This document shows positions 4,539 through 64,000 of a stretch of DNA of 64,000 nt, piece by piece (positions within the stretch are counted from its first letter, which is position 1; each line of letters starts with the position of its first letter). The stretch covers positions 95,012-159,011 of the forward strand of contig NZ_CACZDK010000011.1 of assembly GCF_902779965.1 (NCBI RefSeq), read 5' to 3'. A model generated the notes under the pieces. That model saw only the letters and a program-made list of their open reading frames with translations. It did not search any database and was not told the origin of the DNA. The position numbers and the translations under genes are program-made. The DNA comes from Fibrobacter succinogenes. GTDB lineage: Bacteria; Fibrobacterota; Fibrobacteria; Fibrobacterales; Fibrobacteraceae.

Positions 4539-4552
4539 TTTAACCTCTTTTC

Positions 4553-5140
4553 TTAAAAAGGGCACCCTGTCACAAATTTTAGATTTACTTCTTCCGCATT
4601 CGGAACTCTTGAAAAATTAAAGGTTCCGTCATATTGAACCATACACGAAAAAGTAACATTACAATTCATTGACTTGATATTACAGAACGCTTTATACGCC
4701 CCATACTTGCTATATATAAAATATTCACCATCTATATTTCTTTCAAAATCCACTGGATTACCTATATATTTCCGACCAGCAATTTCATTATTTTTCAAAC
4801 AAAAGGTACCAAGGAAATCTAAATTATCTAGTTTAAGATTTTCGCATACAGAATATCTATCAGAATTCATTTCCAAAATCCATATAGAGTCTCTTACATT
4901 TTCAGTTGTACTATCAAAATAAAGAAATAAGTCATATGGTGAGGGATTGTTTTCATCCATAGGGGCAATGCTGAAATATATACTCCCGTTTTTTCCACAA
5001 CGAACAGAATCCGAATCAAAAGACATTCCGTTGATTGAACAATCTCTATTCACAACAATTTCGTGTTCATAGGGATTATACGAATCATTGCATGCACAAA
5101 AAACAAATGCGGCTAACATGATTACTATAAACTTTTTCAT
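4553..5140 (-). CDS. Cys-rich lipoprotein, unknown function
   Basis: 195 aa. MKKFIVIMLAAFVFCACND is a lipobox. The start overlaps the stop of the S8 peptidase gene (5137/5140). Confidence 0.6.
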   Translation of the reverse strand: MKKFIVIMLAAFVFCACNDSYNPYEHEIVVNRDCSINGMSFDSDSVRCGKNGSIYFSIAPMDENNPSPYDLFLYFDSTTENVRDSIWILEMNSDRYSVCENLKLDNLDFLGTFCLKNNEIAGRKYIGNPVDFERNIDGEYFIYSKYGAYKAFCNIKSMNCNVTFSCMVQYDGTFNFSRVPNAEEVNLKFVTGCPF

Positions 5141-8100: not shown

Positions 8101-8466
8101 AATCATTGTATCCACCTTAAATGAGTTTGATGCGTAATCAACAGAAGCACGAAGCATTGAATCCCGACCATAGTTTCCCGTTTTCACGCCACTGCAGCTA
8201 GGTTTGTTCGCGTTCTTTTCGCAATACTGGATATTTGTGTTTTCTGCGAAATACTGGATTACGGGATTTGATATGGTCTTTGTCGAAATATTGGCAAGAG
8301 TCACCCTATACTCTACCCAATTCCATTCCGTTCTATGGCGTTCACTTTGAAAGTCAACAAGCAAAGAATCACTAGCCATCATCATTGAAGGCAAAAATAC
8401 TACAAAAGCAATTATTTTAACAAGTAATTTCAGTCCACTCATTTCAATATTTTTCATACAAAGCAT
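5137..8466 (-). CDS. large secreted subtilisin-family (S8) serine peptidase
   Basis: 1109 aa. Catalytic motifs occur in D-H-S order: VYDTGVD, HGTRVAGAIGG, AAGNNG, GTSLSAPIVTG. A P-domain-like LVWDD..NDLDMYLVSPSG follows. The N-terminal region of about 450 aa is unassigned. Confidence 0.85.
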   Translation of the reverse strand: MLCMKNIEMSGLKLLVKIIAFVVFLPSMMMASDSLLVDFQSERHRTEWNWVEYRVTLANISTKTISNPVIQYFAENTNIQYCEKNANKPSCSGVKTGNYGRDSMLRASVDYASNSFKVDTMIVSAGKYTVVNLKTKGELRPGKSVKLHFRLHREDWKAWDCSRDYSYQKNAAVKEKSYFMAVYDDKNNILWGYNPLDGSSGTGNVVWSSRNKHHVIEKFKGSEDEVVPQGRFWILKDSVFTKSEKDSLKAKGVDVVEVSTYLGRTLLFSRASVPVRVKTLQLQLSGFYNAFSVDDTTSLSLILGDDDLYGKKRVCQEDGSCEEIVEEKLSYRLEVMCWPDVGMFTCKDIVTSCGGADALIDRQIVLATVPRDSVQCLSRNHNVKDLATEKVGAPFASCSEDKVYYFSDVDFYNGQIYRSMGLNYLQSSPAWVAGMKETVKTTTWLKGELYTGEGVVVGVYDTGVDFENLAFQEYDVEKKEYFPRKSPWYSKENQKYDYDNTTVGRADHGTRVAGAIGGNGSGAPNSRLRGIAPKVQFYSLGGVFNRQSGHVVNHSTALVENDDICCFFDEKDQKEKMRKAIYYGKNFRKIDENIFRNWKLFSEGGDFLTKTFVMAAGNNGDVQYYDTMRGFHSILGPFKNAIVVGAIDARAEDIVASFSGLGPTWDGRIKPDVVAHGTRYSFVVATTIGKGRIESYDYDFMCGTSLSAPIVTGVVALMYQKFRERTGLPLEEQSMRNSTTKAILIHSATDMKGKHRVLDGVEIMEGKKVRVSYGQGPDFVTGWGSVNAKGALDIIDGYDAANQKFERFREFEIYNGMVKKWTFSIPAGAGVKKVRITLVWDDAVPSVEDVSVENFTKSKLVNDLDMYLVSPSGIRYYPWKLDSLSTAYMDENGKFVGARGLLARTSGYEMITLDEAEKGAYQKKHLECLDSNVFRSCFDHLNNVEVVDVEGEFSGADIETGEWQVVVEGYKVKVGNSTDGFAQVASIVSDFKLEEPVCFEDEHPYLKNKTSSCVHELGNFLENYVTFDSRTFVAPNDWIYLYDGSGQLIGAYTGSELAGKTIGVKTKTLKVVLESNDDNQQGWGYAIDKVEHLSYDVLAPILLDVRRKK

Positions 8467-8600
8467 TACATTATAAATTACAATATAACTAACTTTATAT
8501 ACAAAATAAAGCTAAGTTTTTTTTTACAAACTAAATAAATTCTAATATATAAAAAAACGTAAAAAGCCCCCACATACAACGGAATGTTGCTGGAAGCATT

Positions 8601-51133: not shown

Positions 51134-52492
51134 CTACAAGTACATAGCCATATAGGCAGGAATGTAGGTGATTCCGTTCTGTATTTTCAGGTTTCCTGGA
51201 TGTACTACGACACTATGGTCAATTCGCCCAGAGAATTTTTCGATAAACTTTTCTAAAGAAGTTGTCGTATAATTCCGGCTGGACTTGACTTCGATGGGAA
51301 TTATCTTTCGGCGAAGTTTGTTTCCTGTTCCTATCAAAAAGTCAATCTCAATGTCATTGCGCTTCTTTTCTGCGTTGTAATGATTGTAATAGTAAAGTTT
51401 ATGTCCATTGCACGACAGCATTTGAGCCACAACATTCTCGAAAAACATTCCCTCATTTAAAGAAAGTTTTCCCTGTAGAATTTTTAGATAAAGATCTTCA
51501 TCGGCAAGCTGATTTTCATCAAACGTATGGCTAATCAAAAGTCCCGTATCGCCCATATAGCACTTGATATATGCCCTTTTCTCGTTTAACGAAAGTCCTA
51601 TGTTTGGGTCTGTCGTATTGAAGCACTCGTTGGCAATCATCGAATCCGCGAGCCAAAAGAACGTGTCTTCATAAGATTCACCCACGCTACCTTCAACACC
51701 CCTTAGACGGACCCGTTTTTCATGTTGCGAAAGGAACGACGGAATCTGGTCGAAAATGGACTGTACCTTTGAACGGTATTCGCGACCTATTTTTGCAATG
51801 TCGTTTCTGTAGGTCTCAAGGATTTTTCTTTTCTCAACATCGGCAGCAGAAAAATTTCTGTCATTTTGTATAAACTGCGCAACAGCTTTTGGCATTCCGC
51901 CCACAAGCATGTACTGGCGGAACAAAAGCGTCGCTTTCTTGTGTAGATTATTCTCTAACGGAATCTTGGAATCGAAACATTTTTTTGAATAGTCAATAAG
52001 CGGAGCTTCACCCAAAGCAAGGCAAAATTCCTCAAAATCCATAGGGAACATCTTTACGGAATGCTCTTCCGACGGGAGATTGATGTCTTTCACGTTTTCC
52101 TTGATTGAAATCAGTGACCCCGTTTCAATGATATCGTAACGCCCGTCCTTGACCAAATACTTGACCGCTTCCCTTGCTTTGGGGAACTTTTGAATCTCGT
52201 CAAAGATGACAAGCGATTTTCGGCGATGCAAAGTCTTATGGTAAACAGACGAAAGGAGCATCCAAAATGTATCCAAATCGTTCAGATGGTTCTGGAAGGC
52301 CTCCTTGACGGTAGCGCTGGCAATCGTAAAATCTACCAGAAGGTAGCTCTCGTATTCATTTTTCCCAAATTCTTCGACGATAGTGGATTTGCCGATGCGT
52401 CTAGCCCCCTCTATCAAAAGAGCTGTATCGCCATTGGATTTAGCCTTCCAGTCTAAGAGTTTCTTGTAGATTTTTCGCTTAAATGGCTTCAT
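51134..52492 (-). CDS. AAA-family ATPase with DUF4143-like C-terminal domain
   Basis: The ATG at 52492 gives MKPFKRKIYKKLLDW. Walker A is GARRIGKST and Walker B is LVIFDEIQ. The C-terminal ..EIDFLI..IPIEVKSS is a PD-(D/E)xK-like end typical of AAA_14/DUF4143 proteins. Confidence 0.75.
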   Translation of the reverse strand: MKPFKRKIYKKLLDWKAKSNGDTALLIEGARRIGKSTIVEEFGKNEYESYLLVDFTIASATVKEAFQNHLNDLDTFWMLLSSVYHKTLHRRKSLVIFDEIQKFPKAREAVKYLVKDGRYDIIETGSLISIKENVKDINLPSEEHSVKMFPMDFEEFCLALGEAPLIDYSKKCFDSKIPLENNLHKKATLLFRQYMLVGGMPKAVAQFIQNDRNFSAADVEKRKILETYRNDIAKIGREYRSKVQSIFDQIPSFLSQHEKRVRLRGVEGSVGESYEDTFFWLADSMIANECFNTTDPNIGLSLNEKRAYIKCYMGDTGLLISHTFDENQLADEDLYLKILQGKLSLNEGMFFENVVAQMLSCNGHKLYYYNHYNAEKKRNDIEIDFLIGTGNKLRRKIIPIEVKSSRNYTTTSLEKFIEKFSGRIDHSVVVHPGNLKIQNGITYIPAYMAMYL

Positions 52493-52614
52493 TTTTCCAG
52501 CCTTTTTTACAATACGCAACATTAAATATACACAAAAATCAAACAAAACGCAATGTTAAAAACGATAAAATTCGAATAAAACGCAGGGTTAGAACAAAAA
52601 AAAGCGCATCAAGA

Positions 52615-53862
52615 CTAAATTTTTTCCAGTTCGTCTCTCATAGCGGGGCGATTCTTGAACCGCGACAGCCAAGATATTTTCAGCCGGTTGACTTCCGGGA
52701 GGCCGCCTTCGTACTTGAGCAGTTCGCCCGCTTCGCGGACAACATTCCTGTATTCCTTACGGTTGCTGGCACGCACCATTGCGCCATCCAGATATTCCAT
52801 GAACATCTTGACAAATTCTGCATTGTACTTGGGGCACAACGCCTTGCCGTAACGCTTGAAATAAAAAAAGCTCGGCCCAATCGAAAACACCCTGCAAAAA
52901 GACGCATAGAGTTCATCCGTCATGTTTTCGTACGCAAGGACATCCATCCGAAAGTCCCATTTGGTAATCGAATTCAATAATTCAACCAGAGCGCCTTTCC
53001 ACCGTTGCTTAGGGACAAAGTCCTTGTATTCCTTGTAAAAATCCATTCTGGATTGCGCAACAACCATCGTTTTCAGCATGTCGCCGAACTTTTCTGTCTG
53101 GCCTGTCGCACGGTACATTTCTTTCAACTTGGCATGGACCTTTTCTGCAAGCCCCGGCCAGTTTTTATGCGTGTCCAGCAAGTTCGTTAGGCATTTCTCG
53201 GCTTCTTCGAATTTCGATTCTTCCACCAAAATATCGAACAGCAAAAAGGCGGAATCCGTAAACGTCGCATAGTCGGCAAGATACTTCTTGACTTCGGAAT
53301 TGTCCATTTTCAGCTTACGCATTACGGTAGCGCGTGAACAAGCCCAGCCCCCTATACGGTACGAGCGGATACTGTCACTCTGTTTTTCACATTCGATAAT
53401 CTTGTCGAAAAACTTGAGTTTCGCCTTCAGGTCGGCCACACTGTTGAACGCCTCGTTGTACACATCCCACAGTTCGCCTTCCACAAGCCACATTTCCGTT
53501 TTCAGGATGTTGTTCTCTATCCACTTGCGGCATTCCGTAATGACATCGGCCGACGCCGTATTCAAAAAACTCATCCAAAGACTCTTGAATTCCGGCAGGA
53601 GAATTGACATTTCGCCGTTCGAGTCGTCAATGTTCAGGTTCCCGAGCTTTTTCGTGAAATGGACCAGGACCTTCTTGGCGCCGTCATTGTTTACAAACAG
53701 GCGAAGCCTTTCAATTCGCTCGAAAAGATTCAGCATGTCATTCGTGAAATAGCGCGCGTCGCGGTAAGCGATAAGCCCACCGTCGCGATACCTGCGGACG
53801 ATGCTGTCGAACTGGGCGGTGAGATCTTCAAGTTTTAGTGGTTGCATGGTTCGGGTTTCCAT
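52615..53862 (-). CDS. helical-repeat hypothetical protein
   Basis: 415-aa ORF predicted to be all-helical. The C-terminal ..NRKEYRNVVREAGELLKY..WLSRFKNRPAMRDEL resembles the tail region seen in SWIM-associated proteins, but no SWIM finger is present. Confidence 0.5.
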   Translation of the reverse strand: METRTMQPLKLEDLTAQFDSIVRRYRDGGLIAYRDARYFTNDMLNLFERIERLRLFVNNDGAKKVLVHFTKKLGNLNIDDSNGEMSILLPEFKSLWMSFLNTASADVITECRKWIENNILKTEMWLVEGELWDVYNEAFNSVADLKAKLKFFDKIIECEKQSDSIRSYRIGGWACSRATVMRKLKMDNSEVKKYLADYATFTDSAFLLFDILVEESKFEEAEKCLTNLLDTHKNWPGLAEKVHAKLKEMYRATGQTEKFGDMLKTMVVAQSRMDFYKEYKDFVPKQRWKGALVELLNSITKWDFRMDVLAYENMTDELYASFCRVFSIGPSFFYFKRYGKALCPKYNAEFVKMFMEYLDGAMVRASNRKEYRNVVREAGELLKYEGGLPEVNRLKISWLSRFKNRPAMRDELEKI

Positions 53863-53990: not shown

Positions 53991-55460
53991 CTACTTAGCA
54001 CGGCGCAATACGTATTTTCCCTTGCCTGCGCCCACAACAGGTTCCACTATATTTAGCGTTTTCATCCGCTTTATAAGATTGGTCGCAGTAGCCGGAGCAC
54101 ACTTTAAGATATCCACAATATCGCCAGCACCAAAAACTTGATTTATTTGGATTTCGTTCACAAGTTGCAATATTTTATCCCTTACCGAGGCATTCAACTT
54201 AGCATCTAAGATCTCAGACTTGAGCCGAGCAATCCCTAAGTTTTCACCATCAATCCCTAAGTTTTTGTCACCAATCCCTAAGTTTTTCGACCCAAATCCC
54301 GAATTTTTAACGATAGCCTTCAAAATGAAAGCATCCTGCCGATATTCTGGTTTCGGCAATCCCTGCGCTTCCATTTCCCGACACATGCGATCAACACCTT
54401 CCCCAAAATCCTTCACATACTTGTAGTCCTTCAGGTATTCCGCAATATGCGAATTACGGGCAAAATGAGCGTTTCTGATCGCTTCTATCTTCACTTGGCT
54501 CGGAAGGTTCCCCGGAGACTCGACAACAAGATGGTCATCGAACATTTTTATCTGGATTTCCGTCCCCCGAATGGAATAATCTCTATGGGTCACAGCATTG
54601 ACAACAAGTTCAGTACGGACAAATTCAGGATACTCCTGCTCCGTCGTGAAGATTCCTCCCTTAGTCAGATAAGTCCGTTCCTTAATCTGCGTCTGGATAT
54701 AGGCGACAGCCTTCTGAACCTGTTCAAGAATCCGCCCCTCAAATGTTACGTCCTTAACAACATTCATTTCCGCACCGAATTTTTCCTCGATTCCCTCATA
54801 ACGAATGAAACGCACTCTTGCACGCGGGAAGAATAACTGCGGATTTTTGCCAAAAAGAAGTATTGCGGCAACACTCAAATGAACAACGCCCTCTTTTACT
54901 TTAGCAAAGTTATTATTATGCAACAAATACTCATGCGGAGACTTAGAATAGCCAATTAACTTCAAATATTCTTTGAGATAAGCCTCATCGACATCATCAT
55001 AACCGGATTCCGGAACAAGAACATCTTCAAACGAACGCAAGTCCTTGTCGAAACTGAGAGTCATACGGTCATCGTAAGACAAAATCTTAGACTTGTCGCC
55101 AATTCGCAAATAAGCATCATGGGCCTGATTTTCGTGAACAAACGGACTTGCATCAATATGGAATACCAACACATGGTTCGCGCGCCCCTTATAATCAACA
55201 CACTCAACAAATTCGTGAGCGAAAGGGACTGTCGGCATACAGAAATCCATCGGGACTCGCAGCAGCTCATTTACTTCGCGTTTGTGATGATCGACCCCAT
55301 CTATTCTACGAGTCTTGTCTGAAAACCCTACAACGATAATCCCGCCATCAGCATTGGCGAACGCACAGACATGGTTCGAAAAATCGCGCGGAGCAATATT
55401 AACGCTCTTGCGGTCAAAAGTCTGAGATTCTTCCATTGCAAGGATTTCTTCTATACGCAT
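53991..55460 (-). CDS. AlbA_2 (Schlafen-like divergent AAA) / HATPase_c_4 / wHTH protein
   Basis: 489 aa. The N-terminus ESQTFDRKS..VCAFANADGGIIVVG is the classic AlbA_2 motif. NAVTHRDY is in the middle, and a wHTH-like end follows. It contains a 21-bp tandem repeat. Confidence 0.75.
   Translation of the reverse strand: MRIEEILAMEESQTFDRKSVNIAPRDFSNHVCAFANADGGIIVVGFSDKTRRIDGVDHHKREVNELLRVPMDFCMPTVPFAHEFVECVDYKGRANHVLVFHIDASPFVHENQAHDAYLRIGDKSKILSYDDRMTLSFDKDLRSFEDVLVPESGYDDVDEAYLKEYLKLIGYSKSPHEYLLHNNNFAKVKEGVVHLSVAAILLFGKNPQLFFPRARVRFIRYEGIEEKFGAEMNVVKDVTFEGRILEQVQKAVAYIQTQIKERTYLTKGGIFTTEQEYPEFVRTELVVNAVTHRDYSIRGTEIQIKMFDDHLVVESPGNLPSQVKIEAIRNAHFARNSHIAEYLKDYKYVKDFGEGVDRMCREMEAQGLPKPEYRQDAFILKAIVKNSGFGSKNLGIGDKNLGIDGENLGIARLKSEILDAKLNASVRDKILQLVNEIQINQVFGAGDIVDILKCAPATATNLIKRMKTLNIVEPVVGAGKGKYVLRRAK
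54230..54313. repeat. in-frame 21-bp tandem repeat (three good copies plus one degenerate)
   Basis: The copies are caatccctaagttttcaccat, caatccctaagtttttgtcac, caatccctaagtttttcgacc and caaatcccgaatttttaacga. On the coding strand they encode KNLGI heptapeptides. Confidence 0.85.
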
Positions 55461-55523: not shown

Positions 55524-56464
55524 TCACTTCCCAAGGCTTTTCAGCATCTTCCTGTCTTTATTCTTCCAGAAAGTGAGGCCGTTTCTAGCACCTCCGGCAA
55601 CAAACGCTGCCGCCATTGACGGGACTACGGGGTGACCCAGCCGTTCGTCGTTGTGCGCGACGGGCTGATTTGCTGAATGCAACGCAAGGCAGAAACGCTG
55701 GCCGAAGAAACGATTCCGTCCACCTCGATTCCATCGGAACAGATTTTTCCTTCGAAATACGTCTTGAGTTTGCCCTTCGGGCCGTAATCGAAATGCACGG
55801 CATCGCCCACGTTCAAAAGCCCTGCCTTCACAATCTCGTACAAAGCGTTGCTCTTGTCTGTTGTCTTCAAGGATTCCTTTTCCTGAGTCAATTCCAAATC
55901 CGGAAAGTCGTAAAGCACCTCACCCTTGCCGTTCATGTATTTCTCGATATGCTGAATCTGCACATCGACCTTCTGCATCGATGCCCATTCCTCAAGGTCG
56001 CTCGGGGAATAGTCTATCGGCAAAGAGACAATCGGGTCCTTTTCCAGAATCTTCTGAACAAAACCGTGCACATGGATTTGCTGAATTTTCAGGTCGGATT
56101 CAAGAAGCTTCGAGAACTCCTTCTGCTTTCCGATTTCGGCAATGCAAAGTTCCGTAATCTTGTTCTTCGTCTCGCGATTCATCACCGCGACAAGCTGCTT
56201 GCTGATTTGCGGAGCGATATGCCCCCACGTTTCGTGGTCGCCGCGTTCCACCTCCAGGATGAACTATCGGTTCCCCTTGAAATCCACGATGATGCCATCG
56301 GGAACAGTCCCCTTGCCGCCAGAAGTCCGAATTAAACTTTTTGGTAGCAAGATGGAATAGTCACCGAAGAGAAGCTTGAAGTTGCGGACGACAACCTTCT
56401 CGACCTCTTCTTCGGTCTTGAATTGAACCTTGGAATAAAATGTACCTGTGGGAGTGAAGAGCAT
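55524..56464 (-). pseudogene. disrupted PD-(D/E)xK nuclease with RAMA/DUF4357-like C-terminal domain
   Basis: Track ORFs 56264..56464 and 55625..56251 are one reading frame split by an in-frame TAG at 56264..56266 (..PDGIIVDFKGNR*FILEVERGDHE..). The expected C-terminal NGW-x-FWK signature is split again: NGW ends at 55637 and TFWKNKDRKMLKSLGK* continues in another frame at 55524..55574. Confidence 0.7.
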
Positions 56465-56474
56465 GGGAAGAGTC

Positions 56475-57539
56475 CTAATACAATTTCAATTTTTTAGCCA
56501 AGTCTAACCTCATTTTTGATAAAGGCCTTTTGTGTATATCCTCATTTGCATAAAACCTATATAATAAGCGCACAATTTGATCATTCGACAAGAATTTCCT
56601 ATAAGTTGCTTTTATATTTTTTAGATATCCTTTTGTCTGAGCATTCTTATACCAAAGCAGTTCCTCCAACACATCATCAAAAGCTTTATATAAGTCATCA
56701 ATATGAAAGACATTGTTATGATTTATTTTCAATTGTGTATTTTGGCTATTTAAATGAATATTTCTTGCCATTTTACTTTTATCTACAGATAAACTTGTGA
56801 TTACTTTTTTATCAAAATCAAATTTAAAAGGATCCAAATCATTAGAGTCATCCGTATACAAATAGAACTCGCTATCTTTGATGCTTTTCCATCGATTGCA
56901 GAACGGGCAACTTGGTTGCAAATTATAAAACGAAACACATAAAAAGGGGTATTCAGATTTAGGAAGATAATGATCCAACTCATAGCGTCCCATATCATCT
57001 AAACATGTTTTTCCTTTAGTGGTCAAACATTGCACATTCGTGTTAACAATATAACTCGCATTACAATAAACACAAGCATTTATCTTAAGATCATCAAAAT
57101 ACGAAACAAATCCATTAGGAGAATTTCGTACATAATCATATCTCAACGCATCAACAATCGCATCATTAAATTGAGTCATATCCTTGGGATCATTCCATGG
57201 AGATTCTTCCAAATCCGCTTTAGTCAAAAACAGAGCCCTGTGTTTATAAAAATAATCATTGGGACAAAAGGATTTTGTTTTTTTATAATTATCCCAACTT
57301 TTTTTTACCTCTGAAGGTTTCGCTAAAAGTATATCTTCTGGATTATTTTCATCTTCAAAATTGTTTATTATTTCGTCTATATAATCAATATATTTTTGAT
57401 ATCCATTACTCTGCGTTGCGGTAATTTTACTTTTTAAAGCATCCAAATTATCTTTGGGCTTTTGCTTCAAATTTTTAAAAATATTATCACGATATTTTTT
57501 CGCAGTTGTTTCAAAATCAGAATAAAGAAGTCGACGCAT
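56475..57539 (-). CDS. HNH endonuclease, PtuB-like (Septu-type), with extra N- and C-terminal regions
   Basis: The ATG at 57539 is preceded by AGGAG. The HNH core is CVYCN..YELDHYLPKS..YNLQPSCPFCNRWKS (CxxC..H..N..CxxC). About 155 aa precede it and about 135 aa follow it. Confidence 0.6.
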   Translation of the reverse strand: MRRLLYSDFETTAKKYRDNIFKNLKQKPKDNLDALKSKITATQSNGYQKYIDYIDEIINNFEDENNPEDILLAKPSEVKKSWDNYKKTKSFCPNDYFYKHRALFLTKADLEESPWNDPKDMTQFNDAIVDALRYDYVRNSPNGFVSYFDDLKINACVYCNASYIVNTNVQCLTTKGKTCLDDMGRYELDHYLPKSEYPFLCVSFYNLQPSCPFCNRWKSIKDSEFYLYTDDSNDLDPFKFDFDKKVITSLSVDKSKMARNIHLNSQNTQLKINHNNVFHIDDLYKAFDDVLEELLWYKNAQTKGYLKNIKATYRKFLSNDQIVRLLYRFYANEDIHKRPLSKMRLDLAKKLKLY

Positions 57540-57541
57540 AA

Positions 57542-59560
57542 TCACTCCTCTTGAGCAATTTTATCAAGCATATAATCTCTTATAATAGGTTCACCTATTA
57601 AATTATTAATGCGAGATTTTATTTTTTCTTTATCTATTCTTTTCTTACTATCAAAAGAATCAATTAACTTGTCTATTTGCTTTTGAGCATACGCTCCTAT
57701 AAAACCGTTTTCCAAAAAGAAGCTTTGATGCAAAACATCGCAGATATTCGCTGCAAACGGATTGACACGAATAGTATCGCTTACATCTCTCCCGTTTTTT
57801 AAATACAAAATGTTTTGTTTAGGAACATCCGACAGGACAAAAGGAGAATGTGTTACCAAAATAATATTTATCATAAATTTATTATTATAGCCAAGCCTTT
57901 CGATCATAGAAATGAGATTATCGACAAAACAGCGCTGATAATCAGGATGAAAGCTTATTTCTATTTCTTCAAATATCAAGTTGACATTATTATACTTCGG
58001 AATATCCTTAGATTTTACGGACATTAAATTTTCTATATGATAAACACAAGTACTTAAAGTGCTAAAAAGTTGTCTTTCACCCGAACTAAGTTTTTCAAAA
58101 GGAATATTATTTATTGTTTTTTTATAACCATGTTGGTCTTTGTACAAAAAAACAGATGGGACAAAGAACGGTGGAGGAAGATGACGTTTCAGGTCCATCA
58201 AAGAAGCATCTGTCGAATCAAACTTCAGACATTTCAAATAGTCTTCGACAGAAAAGCCATTGGGTTTTCTACTAAGTTTTTTCACCGAATCATAACTGTT
58301 TAAAAAATTATACACTTGATGTACTTTAACTGTAATATGTGATTTATCCTCATTTATAATTTTATTTACAAGTGAAGTTAACAAACTTTTTTCTTTTCCC
58401 AATACAATCCTATCTAATTTCAATATGTTTCCTAAATCTTGATAATTTGAATATAATGAATATTTAGAAACTATTGACAAAACTTTGTATGCCAAGTAGC
58501 CATACGAATAAATTTCCATTTCATCGTACACGGCTTTTTCATCGAACCCAAATTCCTTAGCAATAATACCAAAAATTGTATTTGGATTCCCTTTTAGAAA
58601 AGAGCCTAAATCAAAGAAAATATTTTGAACATCTAGAAGAAAATCATTCAATTCTGAATCATATTCTGGACAGATTTTTTTATCAGCTTTCTCAAAAGTC
58701 TGATTTTTGATATATTCTTTTTTCGCTAATTCTTTAAGCCATGGATTTAATCGTTCTCGGACATACTGACGATCATATTTAAATGTAACGTTTTTAAGGC
58801 CGTATTCATTTATTAGTCTCAATCCTTTTTTTTCAAAATAATAAAGCAACGACGACAATCTAGATACCGTAAAACGTTCTTCTTTTCCCACATCAATCCA
58901 TCCATCCTCACTTCTATATGGATTAAGAACTATCGCCGTTGCATAGCCATCATTTTTATGGAAAATTCTATGAATCCATGATTTCATAGTAGTCCGCCCT
59001 ACTCCTGGAATTTCAAAGCACTTTTCCCCCTTATAATCCGAAGATATAAGTGATTGCATAGAATAGTTTGTAACAATACTATAAAAGAAATTCTTCGTCA
59101 CCCCAATAATGTCAGAAGTTTCTTCACTTATTATAGTCTCTTCACACTCATTCTTTTTCTCAATTAAATAAACCGATTCTCCTTTACAAACAAGAGTGTA
59201 CAGAATATCATTGATTGTATAATATAGTTCTGCATCAATACCGCAAACGAAAAGTAAATTCGATCTCTCTCTTTTTTTTACATCAAGAAGAAAGGAAAAA
59301 TTATTGACCATTCTATAAATCAATTCAAGCAAGGATGACTTACCGCTTCCATTCATGCCAACAATTGCATGAAGAAAAATATTTTTTCCATATATATTTT
59401 CTTCAATATTATATTCGGGATTTAAAACAATCTTATCATTTTCAAGACAACAGCGATTGTTAAAAAAATAAAATCCTGGTTTAAGATTTTTTCTTACAAT
59501 CTTTGAACAATCTTTGCCGATTTTTAAAGCTGCAATACAAAATAAATTTTTCTGTTCCAT
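57542..59560 (-). CDS. ABC/AAA_21-type ATPase, PtuA-like (Septu-type), oversized
   Basis: The ATG at 59560 is preceded by AAGGAAG. Motifs are Walker A GMNGSGKSS, signature-like LSSGERQ, Walker B LIFEEIE and H-loop LVTHSPFVLSD. About 415 aa separate Walker A from the signature. Confidence 0.6.
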   Translation of the reverse strand: MEQKNLFCIAALKIGKDCSKIVRKNLKPGFYFFNNRCCLENDKIVLNPEYNIEENIYGKNIFLHAIVGMNGSGKSSLLELIYRMVNNFSFLLDVKKRERSNLLFVCGIDAELYYTINDILYTLVCKGESVYLIEKKNECEETIISEETSDIIGVTKNFFYSIVTNYSMQSLISSDYKGEKCFEIPGVGRTTMKSWIHRIFHKNDGYATAIVLNPYRSEDGWIDVGKEERFTVSRLSSLLYYFEKKGLRLINEYGLKNVTFKYDRQYVRERLNPWLKELAKKEYIKNQTFEKADKKICPEYDSELNDFLLDVQNIFFDLGSFLKGNPNTIFGIIAKEFGFDEKAVYDEMEIYSYGYLAYKVLSIVSKYSLYSNYQDLGNILKLDRIVLGKEKSLLTSLVNKIINEDKSHITVKVHQVYNFLNSYDSVKKLSRKPNGFSVEDYLKCLKFDSTDASLMDLKRHLPPPFFVPSVFLYKDQHGYKKTINNIPFEKLSSGERQLFSTLSTCVYHIENLMSVKSKDIPKYNNVNLIFEEIEISFHPDYQRCFVDNLISMIERLGYNNKFMINIILVTHSPFVLSDVPKQNILYLKNGRDVSDTIRVNPFAANICDVLHQSFFLENGFIGAYAQKQIDKLIDSFDSKKRIDKEKIKSRINNLIGEPIIRDYMLDKIAQEE

Positions 59561-59594
59561 TTTCTTCCTTATTTTTATCAAACCAATTTTTTTG

Positions 59595-61577
59595 TTATTT
59601 TCCAGATTCAATCCATTCCATCGGAATTAAATAATTTCCATTTCTCCATTCTTCCACTTCATAAACATTTTCAATACTTCCATAAATATCGGAACCCGCA
59701 TGGTCAAGAACTATTACTTGCCACTTACCATTCAACGCCGTAACAGAATTCGACAATGTTTGGAATATTTTCTTTACGGAATTTATTTCATCTGGATCAT
59801 ATTGCGGATCATCATCAGAACTCTTTACAGTACGAGGGAAATACACTTGACTAGGTTGGTCAAAAATTGCAAAAGAAGGTGTAAACGAAGCAGGATTCCT
59901 CATTTGAGCAAAAAATTCCTGCAAAGCACAAATTAAAGCTAAATGAAAGGAAAGCCAGTTTGAAGCACTACCTATTTCACTCAGTAAATGGTCGTATCCC
60001 GAATCATCCTGCACTTTTATAGACAACTCACTTATTGAAAATTCAGGCGGAATGTTTTGATATTTAGGGTCTACATCAAGCGTTTTCAAACGATTCAGCA
60101 TCAATTGAGAAATTTCTGCCAGCCGATGTTCTAAAAGAGTTTTTGAATCATGTTCCCTAATATATTTTTCACATTCATCAATTCTTTTTTGCAACTCAAC
60201 TAATTCTTCGGAAAGAGATCCTTCATCAGATAAAGATTCAATCAACTCTACAGTCTTTTCCAATTTTCCTAGAGAACGGTATATCTCTTCCTGACGGGAA
60301 CTTTCTTGTTTTGCGGATTCATTTTCAGAAAACAAAGCATTTCGCCTCTGTTCCATCAATTTTCTTTCAGAATCCAATTCTTCGAGTCTCTTTTGAAGAT
60401 TTTGCTTTTCTCGACTTACAGCGGCCGGCATTTCAAATGATGAACTCGCTAAATTTTCATATTTCTTTAACGCTATTGAAATTTTTTCAAATTCACTAGA
60501 TGCAGCAGGGTGCTCTATGCCTCCGCAAAACGGACATTTGGAGGACTCCTTAGCAATATTTTCAAACCAAGTTGATATTTTCAATCGCTCTATTTTTCGT
60601 TTTGTCCCATTTCCAACAGTTTGTAACGCTTTTTCAACTTTCGCCAAATTTCTCAATCGTTTTGAAATACGCGCCACTTCGTCATCAATTTCTTGTTCTT
60701 TCAGGTCAAAAGCCTTAAAATCGGCATCAAACGAATCGTTTGCATTTTTTACGGAAACAAGATAACTTTTGGGAGTTGCTATAATTTTTTTCGCAATACT
60801 TACTAATTCATCTTGGTCATTCTCTTTTGTTTCTATACCATCTACAAAGCCTAAATGAACTAATTTTTGAACGTCAATAAGTATATTATTCAGCCATATA
60901 TTTGACACCTTTTTCGTTCTTTCATATTCACGTTGTTTTTGAACAAAAATAAGTTGAAGTTCCTTTAATCGCTTCCTTTTTTCAATTAGTTCAAAATTTT
61001 CCGCACCAAGTATAAAAGAGAACCATTTTTTCAGTCGTTCTCTGTATTCCGTTTTATGACTTTTATAAAATAAAATTGCTTGGTTAGCCACAACATCCTG
61101 ACTTTGCAAAATCAAACGTGTTAGATCGCGAAAACTCAAGCGACTTTCCAACTTAGATGTATTCTCATCGCTTTCTACATACGGAAGCCCACATACTCCA
61201 TTTAAAATTGTTTTTACGCTTTCTAAAGATTGATTTTTCTCCTCAATTTTATGTGGAATTTCTATTTCTTGCTGGCGATCATAATAAAAATCATTAGAAG
61301 CCTTGTCTCCAACAGGAACTTTGCGTGCTATTAAAAATTCATCTTCATCCAAAGAAATAACAAGACCATACCACGAAGCATTATCTCTAATAACCTCTAT
61401 GGGAATCAAACATTTTGACGAGCCAAGACAATAATCTACAATAGGAATTATTGCAGTTTTACCCGTTCTTGATTTCCCTGTAATAACATTAACTTTCCCT
61501 AACTCGAACTTTATAATTCGAGGCCCAAAATTTTCATTTTTCGGCCAAATGACAATATTTTTTACTTGAAAATTCAT
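59595..61577 (-). CDS. lmuB: Lamassu LmuB-type SMC-like ABC ATPase (DUF3732)
   Basis: The ATG at 61577 forms an ATGA overlap with the upstream stop. Walker A is GKSRTGKTA. A long coiled coil carries CPFC at its midpoint (60525..60536). The C-terminal blocks are GSASNWLSFHL, AIFDQPSQVYFP and VIVLDHA. Confidence 0.75.
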   Translation of the reverse strand: MNFQVKNIVIWPKNENFGPRIIKFELGKVNVITGKSRTGKTAIIPIVDYCLGSSKCLIPIEVIRDNASWYGLVISLDEDEFLIARKVPVGDKASNDFYYDRQQEIEIPHKIEEKNQSLESVKTILNGVCGLPYVESDENTSKLESRLSFRDLTRLILQSQDVVANQAILFYKSHKTEYRERLKKWFSFILGAENFELIEKRKRLKELQLIFVQKQREYERTKKVSNIWLNNILIDVQKLVHLGFVDGIETKENDQDELVSIAKKIIATPKSYLVSVKNANDSFDADFKAFDLKEQEIDDEVARISKRLRNLAKVEKALQTVGNGTKRKIERLKISTWFENIAKESSKCPFCGGIEHPAASSEFEKISIALKKYENLASSSFEMPAAVSREKQNLQKRLEELDSERKLMEQRRNALFSENESAKQESSRQEEIYRSLGKLEKTVELIESLSDEGSLSEELVELQKRIDECEKYIREHDSKTLLEHRLAEISQLMLNRLKTLDVDPKYQNIPPEFSISELSIKVQDDSGYDHLLSEIGSASNWLSFHLALICALQEFFAQMRNPASFTPSFAIFDQPSQVYFPRTVKSSDDDPQYDPDEINSVKKIFQTLSNSVTALNGKWQVIVLDHAGSDIYGSIENVYEVEEWRNGNYLIPMEWIESGK

Positions 61578-62074
61578 AGAACAACTCCAAACAAAGAGAG
61601 TAATGTATTTAAATTCACTTGAGAAAACCACTTACCTAAAATTTCTGCTTTCTTTTGAAGTTTCATTATAGGCAAATTTTTCAATACAGACATCTGATTA
61701 TCATCCAGTGACTTAGGATACAATTTTGCAGTTTCGCAATCCCAAACCAACAAACCAAAACTCACAGCAAAATCTACGGATTTCAACGCAATTTCCTTAT
61801 CCTCATTTATTTTAGAAACAAGGGAGGCTAAAATGTCGGACTGCTTTTTATCAGTAAAACTCTGCACATATGCAGCAACAGTTGTTGTTCGATTTGTTAT
61901 CCGTTCGTTATAATTTTTTGACATGAGCAAAGAATACACCAAAAAATCCTCGATAACAACAGCAGCATCATTTGTAGAATGATGTTCAACATAACTTTTA
62001 TTAAAAGCCCATAAAAGGAAAGCTCCTATAAGAGGAGTATTCCATTCTTCATACTCTTCTACTAAACTGCTCAT
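61574..62074 (-). CDS. lmuC: Lamassu LmuC-type / ABC-three-component middle component
   Basis: This 166-aa helical protein is wedged between the nuclease and the ATPase, with 1 nt and an ATGA overlap at its ends. The N-terminal NTPLIGAFLLWAFNKSY pattern resembles middle-component families. Confidence 0.5.
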   Translation of the reverse strand: MSSLVEEYEEWNTPLIGAFLLWAFNKSYVEHHSTNDAAVVIEDFLVYSLLMSKNYNERITNRTTTVAAYVQSFTDKKQSDILASLVSKINEDKEIALKSVDFAVSFGLLVWDCETAKLYPKSLDDNQMSVLKNLPIMKLQKKAEILGKWFSQVNLNTLLSLFGVVL

Positions 62075-62075
62075 T

Positions 62076-63245
62076 CTATTCCTGCTTTAATTTATTTTTC
62101 CAATCTGGATGCCAACCTAATTCTTCATTATTAGACAAAGCATGATAAGACCCTGCAACAGTTTTATAAGGAGGCTTATGCACTCCTAATTGCATATCCT
62201 TATCCATACAATTAATCATCAACAAATGCCCCCTTTGAACATCATCCGATGATTGCATAGTCAAAGATATTTTTTTACGTTCTGATTTATAGGCATCAAT
62301 CAAATTCTTTTCAAAAATTGCTATATCTTCTTTAGATATTATATCATCATCTATCCATTTAATTCTATTTTCGCCAGCTCTATAAAAATCCAATACAGCA
62401 GTTATTTTTTCATCCTGATCTGCATTTACAAAGTCCATTTGTCTAATATAAGTTGGTTTTTGGTTTACTTGATTTTCTGCATAATCGTTTCCAGGAAGTT
62501 TTGATCCAGCAAAATCAATCAAGCAATCGTTATTTAATTTTTTTATTTGCGGATACGCATACTTAACCAAATCTTTTCGAGAAATCGTTGCAACTTGTCT
62601 AGCAGCAATTTTTTTCATTAATTCTTCTTGAAGCCATCCTGTCAAACAATTAACTAAAACAGAAACATCTCGCGATTCAGGAAGCATTAAACGATTTTTT
62701 AAAATGCGCTTTATCTCATCATACACATTATCAGCATTTTTATCACAAACCAATTCAAATCGTGCTACAATTTTTTCAAACAATTTGTAATTTTGATTGA
62801 ATAGACAATAAACATACTTATATAGCGGATGCTCGGAGTCGCTCAAAACATCAATAACATCTGTCTTTATTGCAGAAAGCGTTGCCGAGACATTATTCGC
62901 TCCGGCCTTTGATAATTTTACAATTATCGAATCTTCTTTAGATTCGTGATTCGCATATAGAATAAAAAAGTCCCGATTAGCATCCAATTCATTATTTACA
63001 ACAGCCTGCGTCCAATTATAAAATGTTTTCCACAAATTCTCGGATCGATCCAATACAGGGGACTTCCCTGCTATAGACGATTTATCTTCTTCTGATATTT
63101 TTACACCCTCACCATTTTCAACTCCAACATCACCAAAATCTTCAACCGATACAAATGCATCATCAGATGCTTCAATCAATCGAAGCAACGCTCTCGGATA
63201 CTGCAATGTATATCCAAATAATTGACCAGCAGCAGAAGAATTCAT
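62076..63245 (-). CDS. lmuA: Lamassu LmuA-type effector, Cap4/DUF4297-like PD-(D/E)xK nuclease N-domain
   Basis: 389 aa. AAGQLFGYTLQYPRALLRLIE..VSVEDFGDVGVE..KISEEDKSS fits the G..GF.YQ ... D ... ExK pattern of DUF4297. The C-terminal region is helical. GAGG lies 6 nt upstream of the ATG. Confidence 0.6.
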   Translation of the reverse strand: MNSSAAGQLFGYTLQYPRALLRLIEASDDAFVSVEDFGDVGVENGEGVKISEEDKSSIAGKSPVLDRSENLWKTFYNWTQAVVNNELDANRDFFILYANHESKEDSIIVKLSKAGANNVSATLSAIKTDVIDVLSDSEHPLYKYVYCLFNQNYKLFEKIVARFELVCDKNADNVYDEIKRILKNRLMLPESRDVSVLVNCLTGWLQEELMKKIAARQVATISRKDLVKYAYPQIKKLNNDCLIDFAGSKLPGNDYAENQVNQKPTYIRQMDFVNADQDEKITAVLDFYRAGENRIKWIDDDIISKEDIAIFEKNLIDAYKSERKKISLTMQSSDDVQRGHLLMINCMDKDMQLGVHKPPYKTVAGSYHALSNNEELGWHPDWKNKLKQE

Positions 63246-63273
63246 AAATGCCTCTAGCTATATAAATTTGATT

Positions 63274-64000
63274 TTACCTCTTCTCCACGGCTTCGATTTC
63301 TTCGGTATCGGTGATGCCGTAGAGTTGATAGACAAGAGTGTTGACTTGGGTTTCTAAATCTGTTGTATCTTCACCATTTTTCTTTGCGGTGATGATTTCA
63401 TCGGCGAGAGTGGCGAGTTGTTGCAGGAGTTCCGCGTTTTCTAGGGGGATGCGGAGGTTTTCGAAGTAGGCTTTGCGGATTTCTCGGGTGCCGCCCATGA
63501 GCTCAGGGCAGTTGTACCATATCCAGAGTTTGACAAGGTTGGAATTGAATATGGCGAGGAGGGCTTTCAGTAAGTGGGCCCTATCGCCTTCGGCTCCAGG
63601 GTGACTTTTCGCATTGGATTGCTTCGCTTCGCTCGCAATGACGTTTTCCGTTCCCTTTGGCAAATTCTGCGAATTGTCCTTTTCCGTAATGATAAAAGAT
63701 TTATCGTTGCTGAAAGAGCCGGTTTCATCATAGGTAAACGGAAATACCGATGTCATGTTCGGATATACAATTTTCGGTTTGGCGAATTCTTTATAATATC
63801 CGATCTGGTCCTGCGTTTCAAACCATTTGTTGCTGGTTTTCTTGCGAGCCTTGATTTCTTCGCCGTTCACAATATGCTTGGCACCGGTCTGTTCCAACTT
63901 TTCGATGCCAAAACTCAGCAGATGATTCTTGATTGCCGGATATTGGTTGATGTCAAGGTTTAATGCCGGGAAAGTTCCGATAAGATACTGGTCTTCTTTT
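63274..64000 (-). CDS. DNA methyltransferase / type IIG R-M enzyme, C-terminal TaqI_C-like specificity region (5' part lies outside the window)
   Basis: The frame is open to the window edge. NQYPAIKNHLLSFGIEKLEQTGA..KWFETQDQIGYYKEFAKPKIVYPN and the terminal LVYQLYGITDTEEIEAVE are typical of Eco57I/PglX-type methylases. An in-frame repeat-derived segment interrupts it. Confidence 0.6.
   Translation of the reverse strand, partial: KEDQYLIGTFPALNLDINQYPAIKNHLLSFGIEKLEQTGAKHIVNGEEIKARKKTSNKWFETQDQIGYYKEFAKPKIVYPNMTSVFPFTYDETGSFSNDKSFIITEKDNSQNLPKGTENVIASEAKQSNAKSHPGAEGDRAHLLKALLAIFNSNLVKLWIWYNCPELMGGTREIRKAYFENLRIPLENAELLQQLATLADEIITAKKNGEDTTDLETQVNTLVYQLYGITDTEEIEAVEKR
63616..63642 (-). repeat. 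GTCAT-arm-GAGC..arm' hairpin repeat (arms ATTGC/GCAAT) lying inside the methyltransferase reading frame
   Basis: The minus strand reads gtcATTGCgagcgaagcgaaGCAATcc. It is translated in frame as VIASEAKQS. Confidence 0.8.

Follow-up and report, generated by a model that had tools for sequence, protein, structure and literature searches.

The window analysed here, a 64,000-nucleotide stretch of the Fibrobacter succinogenes genome, contains an AT-rich block of five genes packed on the minus strand directly downstream of a type IIG restriction-modification (RM) gene. A sequence-only reading of this DNA had described the five open reading frames and the junctions between them, and all were confirmed. 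From upstream to downstream, the features are as follows.

63274..64000, minus strand: 3' part of the type IIG RM gene (1287 aa in the full contig), running off the window end
63272..63354, minus strand: conserved last ~80 nt of the RM gene, right limit of the block shared with relatives and probable homology arm
62076..63245, minus strand: lmuA, 389 aa, predicted Lamassu effector with an N-terminal Cap4-type PD-(D/E)xK nuclease and a C-terminal CTD7
61574..62074, minus strand: lmuC, 166 aa, predicted Lamassu middle component of the MC3 family
59595..61577, minus strand: lmuB, 660 aa, predicted short SMC/Rad50-like Lamassu sensor ATPase
59561..59594, minus strand: inter-module spacer, 34 nt with AAGGAAG, boundary of Lamassu and M62
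57542..59560, minus strand: PDC-M62A, 672 aa, predicted ABC-type (AAA_15/AAA_21) ATPase of the PtuA/AriA structural class
56475..57539, minus strand: PDC-M62B, 354 aa, predicted HNH (beta-beta-alpha-metal) nuclease with an extra N-terminal helical domain
55625..56464, minus strand: host-like downstream gene, split by an in-frame TAG into 66 aa and 208 aa, left limit of the AT-rich block

The start codons agree with the consensus of homologue N-termini and with deposited lengths of 672, 660 and 354 aa. The lmuA/lmuC junction reads TAG-a-ATG (62074/62076, 1 nt apart), lmuC and lmuB share an ATGA overlap (61574-61577), and PDC-M62A and PDC-M62B (hereafter M62A and M62B) are joined by TGA-tt-ATG (57539/57542) with GAGGAG ahead of the ATG. 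The biggest gap inside the block is the 34-nt spacer between lmuB and M62A, and the block itself is separated by 10 nt from its left-hand neighbour and by 28 nt from the RM gene on the right, which is on the same strand. Translational coupling is seen inside the Lamassu module and inside the M62 pair and is absent between them, so that the earlier proposal of one translationally linked unit of both modules is not supported. The packing is tight and co-directional, co-transcription of the five genes is plausible, and no terminator-like or promoter-like site was recognised at the lmuB/M62A spacer in a scan that is uninformative for Fibrobacter. The M62 module begins at its own ATG, and the 34-nt spacer is too short to hold a separate promoter, so the module probably relies for its expression on the DNA upstream.

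The drop in base composition that had been estimated by hand was also borne out. G+C from 56475 to 63245 is 0.320 as compared with 0.474 in the remainder of the window, the minimum among 249 other 6.8-kb windows being 0.409, and GC3 is 0.24-0.28 across all five genes versus 0.45-0.67 in adjoining genes. However, the edges, which had been described as sharp on both sides, are so only on the left, where G+C changes from 0.47 to 0.30 between neighbouring 100-nt windows at 56474/56475. On the right the change is less abrupt: G+C is 0.40 over the final 100 nt of lmuA, 0.25 in the short stretch separating lmuA from the RM gene and 0.43 over the first 100 nt of that gene. The block common to relatives extends from 56477 to 63354, taking in the final ~80 nt of the RM gene. 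The AT-rich DNA of relatives runs past the five genes into further defence genes, so AT-richness does not set these five genes apart as a unit of their own.

Families of the two modules

Genes one to three are predicted to constitute a textbook short Lamassu of the Cap4/CTD7-MC3-DUF3732 type with its catalytic residues present, and the earlier assignment to Lamassu/ABC-three-component (PD-(D/E)xK nuclease, small protein and SMC-like ATPase) was upheld by PADLOC, Pfam and alignments to solved complexes. LmuA matches the PADLOC LmuA profile over its full length (4.1e-42) and Pfam CTD7 at residues 266-385 (1.3e-18), and aligns full-length to the solved LmuA chains 9hqu_C (6.9e-33) and 9nxx_A (3.6e-26). 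Its D36...E53-x-K55 motif is present, with K55 aligned to K57 of Vibrio cholerae LmuA, a residue reported to be essential (PMC12663957). LmuC is a full-length match to Pfam MC3 (9.1e-15) and also matches PDB chains named LmuC (9hqu_D, 5e-6; 9ny5_C, 7.5e-3). LmuB matches PADLOC LmuB over its full length (1.1e-108) and Pfam DUF3732/LmuB_C (6.4e-44), aligns full-length to 9hqu_A (7.8e-122) and 9ny5_D (1.3e-95), and carries a Walker A motif (GKSRTGKT at 34), a single CxxC (CPFC at 348) and a short-type Walker B (FAIFDQ at 569).

The module therefore resembles V. cholerae DdmABC/LmuABC (9NY5/9NXX) and the related complex 9HQU/9HQX in its lmuA-lmuC-lmuB order with 1-nt and 4-nt junctions, in the Walker A, D-Q Walker B and DUF3732 of LmuB, in the MC3 of LmuC, and in an LmuA that combines a Cap4-type N-terminal domain, with its catalytic lysine, and CTD7. 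Each of the three Fibrobacter proteins aligns to the solved chains along its whole length or nearly so, at modest sequence identity. Unlike V. cholerae LmuB, which is described as lacking a zinc hook (PMC12663957), Fibrobacter LmuB has one CxxC at 348; in addition, the host here is a rumen Fibrobacter.

The downstream pair had been read as a Septu-like ABC ATPase with an HNH nuclease. The two enzyme classes and the relationship to Septu stood, while the family changed: judged from profile matches, genes four and five are best assigned to the PADLOC candidate PDC-M62 and not to Septu proper, and the pair is a distant Septu relative. We know of no experimental validation of this candidate system. 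M62A matches PDC-M62A over residues 41-666 (7.9e-51) and M62B matches PDC-M62B over its full length (2.9e-36), so both proteins fit these profiles nearly end to end, and the genes are adjacent, as in PDC-M62, here with 2 nt between them. Unlike PDC-M62 elsewhere, the pair here directly follows another system, with no intergenic DNA upstream to itself; the Fibrobacter alleles also group in a clade apart, with at most 42% identity to the nearest non-Fibrobacter homologues. PMC11811056 cites PDC-M62 as an unpublished candidate of Payne et al.

A possible but doubtful alternative is that the pair is simply Septu (PtuAB), which would make the block a Lamassu followed by a Septu, both fully described families. 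The two-gene ATPase-HNH architecture is indeed the same as in Septu (8EEA/8EE4 and retron Ec78/Ec83 PtuAB), and PADLOC results for the Bacillus cereus group contain 203 cases in which a PDC-M62 call duplicated a Septu call (PMC11811056). M62A matches Pfam AAA_15 and AAA_21 and has a Walker A (GMNGSGKS at 68), signature (SSGE at 492), Walker B (LIFEE at 528) and H-loop (THSP at 570). Its AF2 model (pLDDT 80.9) predicts an ABC ATPase fold with a helical insertion, as in Septu (Foldseek E 7e-7 to 8e-4), and is nearest to PtuA and AriA (AriA, 5.8e-7; retron Ec83/Ec78 PtuA, 7e-7 to 1e-4; E. coli Septu 8eea, 6e-5). M62B shares with Septu an HNH active-site motif with two CxxC pairs; C156-x2-C159, D189-H190, N206 and C211-x2-C214-N215 are invariant in 30 homologues, several of which contain PF01844 HNH. 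The top three Foldseek matches of its AF2 model (pLDDT 88.5) are retron Ec78 PtuB chains. However, these last matches have E values of 0.1-0.5, so the likeness of fold between M62B and PtuB is not significant, and M62B has ~150 additional N-terminal residues. M62A is likewise bigger, being 120-220 aa longer than solved PtuA chains, with ~12% sequence identity to them. Furthermore, the near-full-length matches to PDC-M62 stand against PtuA models that reach only the C-terminal ~180 aa of M62A at 1e-15 or weaker, a PtuB profile that reaches only the HNH core of M62B (1e-7), and an NCBIfam PtuA score of 44.8 bits where the cut-off is 500 bits. A search around the locus for a retron RT or ncRNA near the M62 pair found neither.

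Whichever name is preferred, the M62 genes form a self-contained pair. Across species-level genome loci with M62A, M62B is present in 76 of 80, usually overlapping or a few nt away, and no recurrent third gene lies beside the pair, the neighbours on both sides being heterogeneous.

Independent histories of Lamassu and M62

Lamassu and M62 at this locus have independent histories. Among related Fibrobacter loci, identity is 98-100% for the Lamassu genes and 57-78% for the M62 pair. For example, LmuB protein shows 98-100% identity to that of loci L009, L013, L178 and L182 as compared with 72-78% for M62A, and M62B is 69-70% identical to that of L009 and L013. Values of dS are about 0-0.06 for lmuB and lmuC versus 0.83-1.8 for M62A and M62B, the latter with a dN/dS of 0.10-0.26. 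Accelerated in-situ evolution of M62 was considered as a cause and rejected, as it requires low dS and high dN and the opposite is seen. The nucleotide identity profile breaks at ~59616, the LmuB/M62A junction; against L009 and L013 it falls from 99-100% to 75-96% in the 100-nt bin of the spacer and to 55-85% deeper in M62A.

Each module also occurs without the other in close relatives. An M62AB pair with 71% identity occurs without Lamassu in L016 and in L186-189. L016 has the same RM gene upstream, with AbiJ and further genes in the slot, and its homology to the window resumes at 59563. Conversely, L098 has Lamassu (98% nucleotide identity across LmuC-LmuB), its homology to the window ends at 59610, and PDC-S57 and other genes follow. 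Consequently, the earlier suggestion of a fixed unit moved as one block is not supported, and the alternative of simple stacking, raised alongside it, is favoured by this separability and by the discordant divergence.

The discordance bears equally on a further idea, very improbable in our view: that the five genes are cargo of a single mobile cassette, whether an integrative element, a transposon or an integron-like cassette, and entered the site together in a recent insertion. The sharp left change in G+C, the uniform GC3 and the identical block ends (63354 and 56477) in the window, L009 and L013, outside of which the DNA differs, would be expected of such a cassette. However, dS differs between the halves by a factor of about 20 or more, which implies that the modules did not arrive together recently. 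There are no direct or inverted repeats at the flanks, no tRNA within the window, and no integrase, transposase or recombinase in the called genes around the block. The block was found on no plasmid or phage record, distant Bacillus LmuBC matches being all that appeared, and the exact copies all share one chromosomal context. Other defence genes of relatives' islands are likewise AT-rich, so low G+C marks the accessory gene pool and not one element.

Lamassu followed by M62 is nevertheless the commonest arrangement in the Fibrobacter clade, in a sampling biased by locus retrieval (24 loci with at least six distinct M62 alleles, versus five M62-only and one Lamassu-only). One could envisage that the modules are co-transcribed and functionally coupled through synergy, mutual back-up or shared sensing, with adjacency selected while M62 alleles diversify. 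That order is kept over these deeply diverged alleles, with an inter-module spacer of 10-35 nt in all of them and an M62 module without its own upstream region. We consider such coupling improbable since the modules occur apart in close relatives, do not co-diverge (dS about 0 versus about 1), and in every Fibrobacter case occupy one chromosomal locus, so that shared ancestry explains the recurrence. Across phyla, an LmuB profile, which would miss long-type or very divergent Lamassu, places a Lamassu no more than 10 kb from M62A in 1 of 80 genomes, and an M62A profile has no match in any of 80 LmuB loci, 43 of them with at least 2.1 kb downstream. The one co-occurrence (L031, a rumen Bacteroidales genome) is independent and in the same orientation. 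As Lamassu is found in about 15% of genomes (PMC12663957), these frequencies are about what general defence-island clustering predicts. Additionally, Lamassu is described as self-sufficient (PMC12663957) and M62 pairs stand alone in 79 of the 80 genomes.

A modular defence island

The neighbours of the block are the type IIG RM gene, PDC-S01 and an AlbA_2 protein. The RM gene matches PADLOC REase_MTase_IIG (2.7e-33) and Pfam TaqI_C, and its full form in L001 and L003 contains DUF7149, DUF7814, Eco57I and TaqI_C. Upstream of 63354, RM-side identity is 0.51-0.56, and from there on it is 0.92-0.93; blastn alignments with L009, L013 and L017 begin at 63354, and L016 has RM-side homology over 63354..63272. 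The RM C-terminal motif LETQVNTLVYQLYGITD is retained, largely even in otherwise divergent RM variants. At the other end, the TAG split of the downstream gene is present in all identical copies and its 208-aa part has a GC3 of 0.67. This gene gives a weak RAMA match (E 0.007, below cut-off), and L178 has a RAMA gene in the same position.

As in other modular defence islands, type IIG RM, Lamassu, PDC-M62 and PDC-S01 are packed co-directionally, and AbiJ, PDC-S57 and a KAP NTPase occupy the same slots in relatives, the flanks being kept while contents vary. Unlike other modular hotspots, this one has exchange boundaries at most a few nt away from start and stop codons, which leaves the modules with hardly any regulatory DNA, and the RM 3' end and the M62A 5' end appear to serve as homology arms. 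In M62A, pS is 0.16-0.20 in codons 1-60 versus 0.5-0.65 elsewhere. We infer that the locus is an array of slots prone to recombination (RM 3' end, slot 1, M62AB, variable genes). Homologous recombination through two conserved arms, the RM 3' end and the first ~60 M62A codons, would swap whole modules there. Lamassu would adjoin M62 because of this organisation.

Molecular mechanisms for the two systems can be proposed by analogy with homologues (PMC12663957; bioRxiv 10.1101/2025.03.14.643221; PMC12819146). If Lamassu (63245-59595) works like its solved homologues from V. cholerae and related complexes, monomeric LmuA would be sequestered by an LmuB dimer together with LmuC. On sensing DNA ends or aberrant replication structures, LmuB/LmuC would hydrolyse ATP and release LmuA, which would tetramerise via its CTD, cut DNA non-specifically and abort the infection. 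In the M62 pair (59560-56475), the ABC ATPase M62A probably keeps the HNH nuclease M62B inactive and may release it upon a phage cue or a change in ATP. The hypervariable helical insertion of M62A (residues ~265-354) is a likely specificity or sensor region.

Most likely, then, the block is two independent defence systems of known type that follow one another, head to tail, within a chromosomal island of co-directional genes, just downstream of a type IIG RM gene. The two modules are best viewed as separate, swappable parts of a defence island and not as one fixed five-gene system.

Gene content and composition of the AT-rich block

The block consists of five minus-strand open reading frames that lie where the sequence-only reading had placed them, and the junctions between these genes are likewise all as it had described.

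62076-63245, minus strand: lmuA, first Lamassu gene
61574-62074, minus strand: lmuC, second Lamassu gene
59595-61577, minus strand: lmuB, third Lamassu gene
57542-59560, minus strand: M62A, ABC ATPase gene of the M62 pair
56475-57539, minus strand: M62B, HNH nuclease gene of the M62 pair

The lmuA and lmuC genes meet as TAG-a-ATG, lmuC and lmuB overlap by ATGA, a 34-nt spacer with AAGGAAG separates lmuB from M62A, and M62A is joined to M62B by TGA-tt-ATG behind GAGGAG (a gap of 2 nt). Gaps of 28 nt and 10 nt separate the block from the preceding and following genes, respectively. The ATG starts agree with the N-termini of homologues and with deposited protein lengths, and longer reading frames from TTG 59611, GTG 61631 and GTG 57545 are not supported. 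The reported drop in G+C is borne out, with a value of 0.320 in the block versus 0.474 in the rest of the window, and the minimum over 249 other windows of equal length is 0.409. Third-position G+C (GC3) is 0.24-0.28 in the block genes versus 0.45-0.67 in neighbouring genes, and the compositional contrast is far beyond chance. Of the sharp edges that had been claimed, the G+C profile confirms an abrupt left edge but shows a softer right one.

The first three genes had been read as a Lamassu-type module, and PADLOC, Pfam and alignment to solved complexes identify them as a complete short Lamassu (ABC-3C) system, with LmuA, LmuB and LmuC each aligning to solved Lamassu chains along the entire or almost the entire protein. 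The LmuB of short Lamassu is an SMC/Rad50-like ATPase of ~600 aa with a Gx4GK[S/T] Walker A motif and a short-type hhhhD[Q/S/T/E] Walker B motif (PMC12663957). The LmuB of the block agrees with this definition in length and in both motifs, as it has 660 aa, a Walker A of GKSRTGKT at residue 34 and a short-type Walker B of FAIFDQ at residue 569; it also has one CxxC, at residue 348. It matches the PADLOC LmuB profile over its full length (1.1e-108), Pfam DUF3732 (6.4e-44) and the solved chains 9hqu_A (7.8e-122) and 9ny5_D (1.3e-95). LmuC, which is encoded between the other two proteins as expected of the small middle component of Lamassu, matches Pfam MC3 (9.1e-15) and LmuC chains in the PDB (5e-6 to 7.5e-3). 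LmuA follows the Lamassu pattern, in which an N-terminal effector domain is combined with a C-terminal ABC-3C domain for docking to LmuB/LmuC; it matches PADLOC LmuA (4.1e-42) and solved Lamassu chains (6.9e-33 and 3.6e-26), and its C-terminal domain corresponds to Pfam CTD7 (1.3e-18). The N-terminal domain is a Cap4-type PD-(D/E)xK nuclease that aligns to 9nxx_A, with K55 opposite the catalytic K57 of V. cholerae LmuA and opposite the alanine of chain 9ny1, a K57A mutant. K57 is essential both in vitro and in vivo in V. cholerae, where 9NY5 is the LmuABC complex and 9NXX the LmuA tetramer (PMC12663957). By reference to homologues, LmuB2-LmuC would sequester LmuA and sense DNA ends or replication structures, and ATP-dependent release of LmuA would lead to tetramerisation and non-specific DNA cleavage (PMC12663957; 10.1101/2025.03.14.643221). 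Going by these homologues, the module would have anti-phage or anti-plasmid activity via DNA-end sensing and LmuA tetramerisation.

The last two genes, which had been proposed as a Septu-like pair, do encode an ABC ATPase and an HNH nuclease, but the PADLOC candidate system PDC-M62 fits them better and membership of Septu proper is not established. M62A has a Walker A motif at residue 68, SSGE at 492, LIFEE at 528 and THSP at 570, while M62B has the HNH motifs CxxC (156), DH (189), N (206) and CxxC-N (211), which are invariant across 30 homologues. By far the best PADLOC matches of the two proteins are the PDC-M62 profiles, with M62A matching PDLC04737 (PDC-M62A) at 7.9e-51 over residues 41-666 of 672 and M62B matching PDLC04743 (PDC-M62B) at 2.9e-36 over residues 13-353 of 354. 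PADLOC PtuA models reach at best 1e-15 on M62A and cover only residues ~478-657 in the C-terminal ATPase half, and with the NCBIfam PtuA model the score is 44.8 bits, where the cut-off is 500 bits. These profiles do not support an assignment of M62A as PtuA; the fold class is common to both. PtuB profiles likewise match only the HNH core of M62B (1e-7). Neither protein has a close relative with a solved structure, and a sequence search of M62B against the PDB returned nothing significant. The closest folds to the AlphaFold model of M62A (pLDDT 80.9) are PARIS AriA and the PtuA of retrons Ec83 and Ec78 and of E. coli Septu (E 6e-7 to 8e-4, at ~12% identity), and for the M62B model, a confident one (pLDDT 88.5), Foldseek ranks PtuB chains of retron Ec78 first, with weak E values of 0.1-0.5. 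An Rfam scan gave no RNA family match, and thus no retron noncoding RNA by which the ATPase-HNH pair could be read as the effector of a retron. A full-text literature search under the name PDC-M62 found it described only as an unpublished PADLOC candidate, one with calls that often duplicate those for Septu (PMC11811056). Consequently, "Septu-like" is a fair description of the pair and PDC-M62 the precise assignment. By analogy with Septu, the M62 ATPase would restrain the HNH nuclease until a phage cue is received (PMC12819146).

The surrounding defence island

The setting of the block is a chromosomal defence island, at a locus flanked by GH26 genes and eno. Upstream of lmuA on the same strand is a type IIG restriction-modification (RM) gene that runs off the window end at 64000 and encodes a 1287-aa enzyme in the full contig. 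Downstream of the block the following genes occur in order, after which come GntR and enolase genes.

55625-56464, minus strand: stop-interrupted host-like gene
53991-55460, minus strand: AlbA_2/HATPase_c_4 protein, a further defence-island gene
52615-53862: 415-aa protein with no family match
51134-52546, minus strand: PDC-S01 homologue, a further defence-island gene

The PDC-S01 homologue contains AAA_14 and DUF4143 (2.6e-106), and the AlbA_2/HATPase_c_4 protein partially matches a PADLOC pAgo-associated profile. An in-frame TAG (56261-56263) divides the interrupted gene into reading frames of 66 aa and 208 aa in the window and in every identical metagenome copy; its version in homologous locus L017 is intact at 225 aa, where the stop is lost through a ~130-nt deletion. 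A RAMA domain is weakly matched by the C-terminal part, and a RAMA gene occupies the same position in locus L178. Since the GC3 of the split gene is host-like at 0.67, this gene and the RM gene may be original neighbours between which the AT-rich modules were inserted.

Two further features were observed in the window and its relatives. At 63570-63645 (minus strand) the RM gene has an in-frame insert of ~25 aa (ENVIASEAKQSNAKSHPGAEGDRAH), the DNA of which occurs once in the window and which is absent from the homologues in loci L013 and L182. Close to the C-terminus, the RM homologues of L013, L182 and L016 have another in-frame insert, ASCHPE[R/L]TLEPKAIGEVEGSS, which is missing from the window, and L016 also has the first insert of ~25 aa. 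Both look like small repeat-derived insertions that are tolerated in frame. Additionally, a second AT-rich block is present at 4000-8500 (minus strand; G+C 0.35-0.41, GC skew -0.17 to -0.41), which encodes an 1109-aa Peptidase_S8 subtilase (5137-8466) with weak matches to PADLOC subtilase and IetS profiles, and two small reading frames with no family match.

Separate histories of the two modules

Contigs carrying M62A homologues of 57-78% identity were inspected, and most of these homologues sit behind Lamassu in the same order as in the window. In these loci the Lamassu genes are 87-100% identical to those of the window and the M62 genes 57-78%. A sliding identity profile in 100-nt bins against loci L009 and L013 is at 0.99-1.00 across most of the Lamassu genes, the exceptions being 62216-62716 in L009 (88-93%) and the last ~300 nt of lmuB in L013 (89-93%); it falls in the bin with the spacer and the stop codon of LmuB, and across M62A and M62B it ranges over 0.55-0.90. 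Synonymous divergence (dS) is 0.00-0.06 for lmuB and lmuC versus 0.83-1.8 for M62A and M62B, with dN/dS of 0.10-0.26, values by which the M62 alleles are old and under purifying selection. A near-identical Lamassu has been put beside old M62 alleles by recombination, or the reverse. Positive selection as the source of M62 divergence was rejected given these ratios, near-saturated dS and a pN/pS of only ~0.6 in the most variable segment. The patch at 62216-62716 in L009 (lmuA residues ~177-343) forms a mosaic within a Lamassu that is otherwise 98-100% identical and lifts lmuA dS to 0.19, which indicates that the LmuA linker and the first part of CTD7 belong to a recombination tract of their own.

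The two modules also occur apart. In L016 the RM gene and the M62 pair are kept with eight other genes, including an AbiJ homologue, in the place of Lamassu; homology to the window ends at the RM stop codon and restarts at 59563, three nt before the M62A ATG. The M62 pair is again found behind other genes and without Lamassu in L186-189. Conversely, locus L098 has LmuC-LmuB at 98% nucleotide identity with homology ending at 59610, inside the last LmuB codons, after which a PDC-S57 homologue and other genes follow with no M62. Among the fetched loci, 24 have both modules (with at least six M62 alleles), five have only M62 and one only Lamassu, counts that are biased by retrieval. Exact-protein look-ups found every copy in the same chromosomal context and are thus uninformative on linkage.

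More distant genomes give a similar picture. Among 80 genomes, each representing a species and carrying an M62A homologue of 28-41% identity, an LmuB profile search within 10 kb found Lamassu in one, the rumen Bacteroidales locus L031, where 1.2 kb and two small reading frames lie between the modules. In the reverse survey of 80 metagenomic LmuB loci, LmuA was present in 72 and LmuC in 66, and an M62A profile search found none (43 of the loci, with at least 2.1 kb downstream, being informative on that side). As Lamassu is present in about 15% of genomes (PMC12663957), one case in 80 is at the level of ordinary defence-island clustering, and no excess of co-occurrence over such clustering is seen across lineages.

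A fixed translationally linked unit of both, moved as one block, is not supported, as the modules are found apart in both directions and do not diverge together. Simple stacking, which the sequence-only reading had offered as its alternative, is favoured by separable modules with discordant histories. One cooperating system of five genes is improbable. In its favour are the frequency of the Lamassu-M62 order in Fibrobacter and an M62 module that lacks its own upstream region; against it, all of the Fibrobacter cases are at one locus, the histories are discordant and each module also occurs alone. Even less credible is a single mobile cassette. Its two halves differ in age, the window has no tRNA, no integrase-like gene was found among the neighbours, flanking repeats amount to short chance-level pairs, and plasmid and phage collections returned only distant Bacillus LmuBC matches. 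A Bacillus toyonensis plasmid that encodes an "HNH endonuclease" 1.6 kb after LmuB, an apparent second case of Lamassu with an ATPase-HNH pair, was rejected because no ATPase reading frame lies between and the HNH protein is of another, standalone type.

Proposed module exchange and allelic variation of the M62 pair

Most likely, two independent systems are stacked in a slot array composed of the RM 3' end, a slot, M62AB and variable genes. The RM gene is conserved over its last ~80 nt, for the most part also in variants whose remaining sequence has diverged, and codons 1-60 of M62A have a pS of 0.16-0.20 versus 0.5-0.65 elsewhere; these two segments are plausible homology arms by which whole modules could be exchanged. 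Translational coupling is confined within each module, with the 34-nt spacer as the module boundary. The whole array may plausibly be co-transcribed, since the gaps are tiny and no terminator-like site was found. A promoter and terminator consensus scan found nothing at the junction 59561-59594, with counts at the shuffled level (38 vs 31 +/- 5; 6 vs 5.5 +/- 2.4), but it does not settle the matter, as promoters in Fibrobacter may depart from the sigma-70 consensus. A more ambitious proposal, which we regard as unlikely, is that RM, Lamassu, M62 and the downstream gene constitute one polycistronic defence operon, an integrase-free, integron-like slot array, driven by recombination, in which modules nearly devoid of their own regulatory DNA would be exchanged at start and stop codons, the persistent Lamassu-M62 adjacency would reflect functional synergy and, as a subsidiary point, a Septu-like system yet to be characterised would sense phages through a fast-diversifying surface, M62A residues ~265-354.

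The M62 pair itself is conserved. M62B was detected in 76 of the 80 species-representative genomes, where the two genes usually overlap by 4-35 nt, and clustering of upstream and downstream neighbours in these genomes gave a heterogeneous set with no recurrent third partner. Identity across the Fibrobacter alleles is 0.86-0.96 in the ATPase and HNH cores. In eight of the M62A alleles, residues ~265-354, a segment of the helical insertion encoded at about 58499-58768 (minus strand), have only 0.35-0.42 amino acid identity, indels and the highest pN/pS (about 0.6). Hypervariable and set between conserved ATPase motifs, this segment is a candidate specificity determinant.

Other arrangements were also observed. 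Both Fibrobacter contexts without Lamassu encode a cysteine-rich protein of ~518 aa 36 nt upstream of M62A (L016 7974-9530 and L186 4584-6143; 88% identical), which has no Pfam or PADLOC match, and matches neither LmuB nor the M62AB neighbours of the 80 genomes; it may represent a defence gene not yet characterised, or another partner for M62AB. In four loci from Flavobacteriia and related organisms (L087, L090, L095 and L097), the reading frame directly upstream of the matched M62A is M62B-like and is itself preceded by one of ~620-710 aa, which suggests tandem M62-like pairs.

A fixed composite five-gene unit is not supported, and the defence island is ordinary, if neatly modular. With the composite system failing, the main value of the analysis is negative: relatives of a tight, AT-rich, operon-like block of two ATPase-nuclease modules should be checked before a new five-gene system is claimed. 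The locus also illustrates module exchange clearly, down to the gene boundaries, and adds to the recorded defence content of Fibrobacter succinogenes, a rumen cellulose degrader. Additionally, its M62 alleles form a natural series for the uncharacterised PDC-M62 family; with conserved ATPase and HNH cores and one hypervariable helical insertion, they suggest where specificity may lie.
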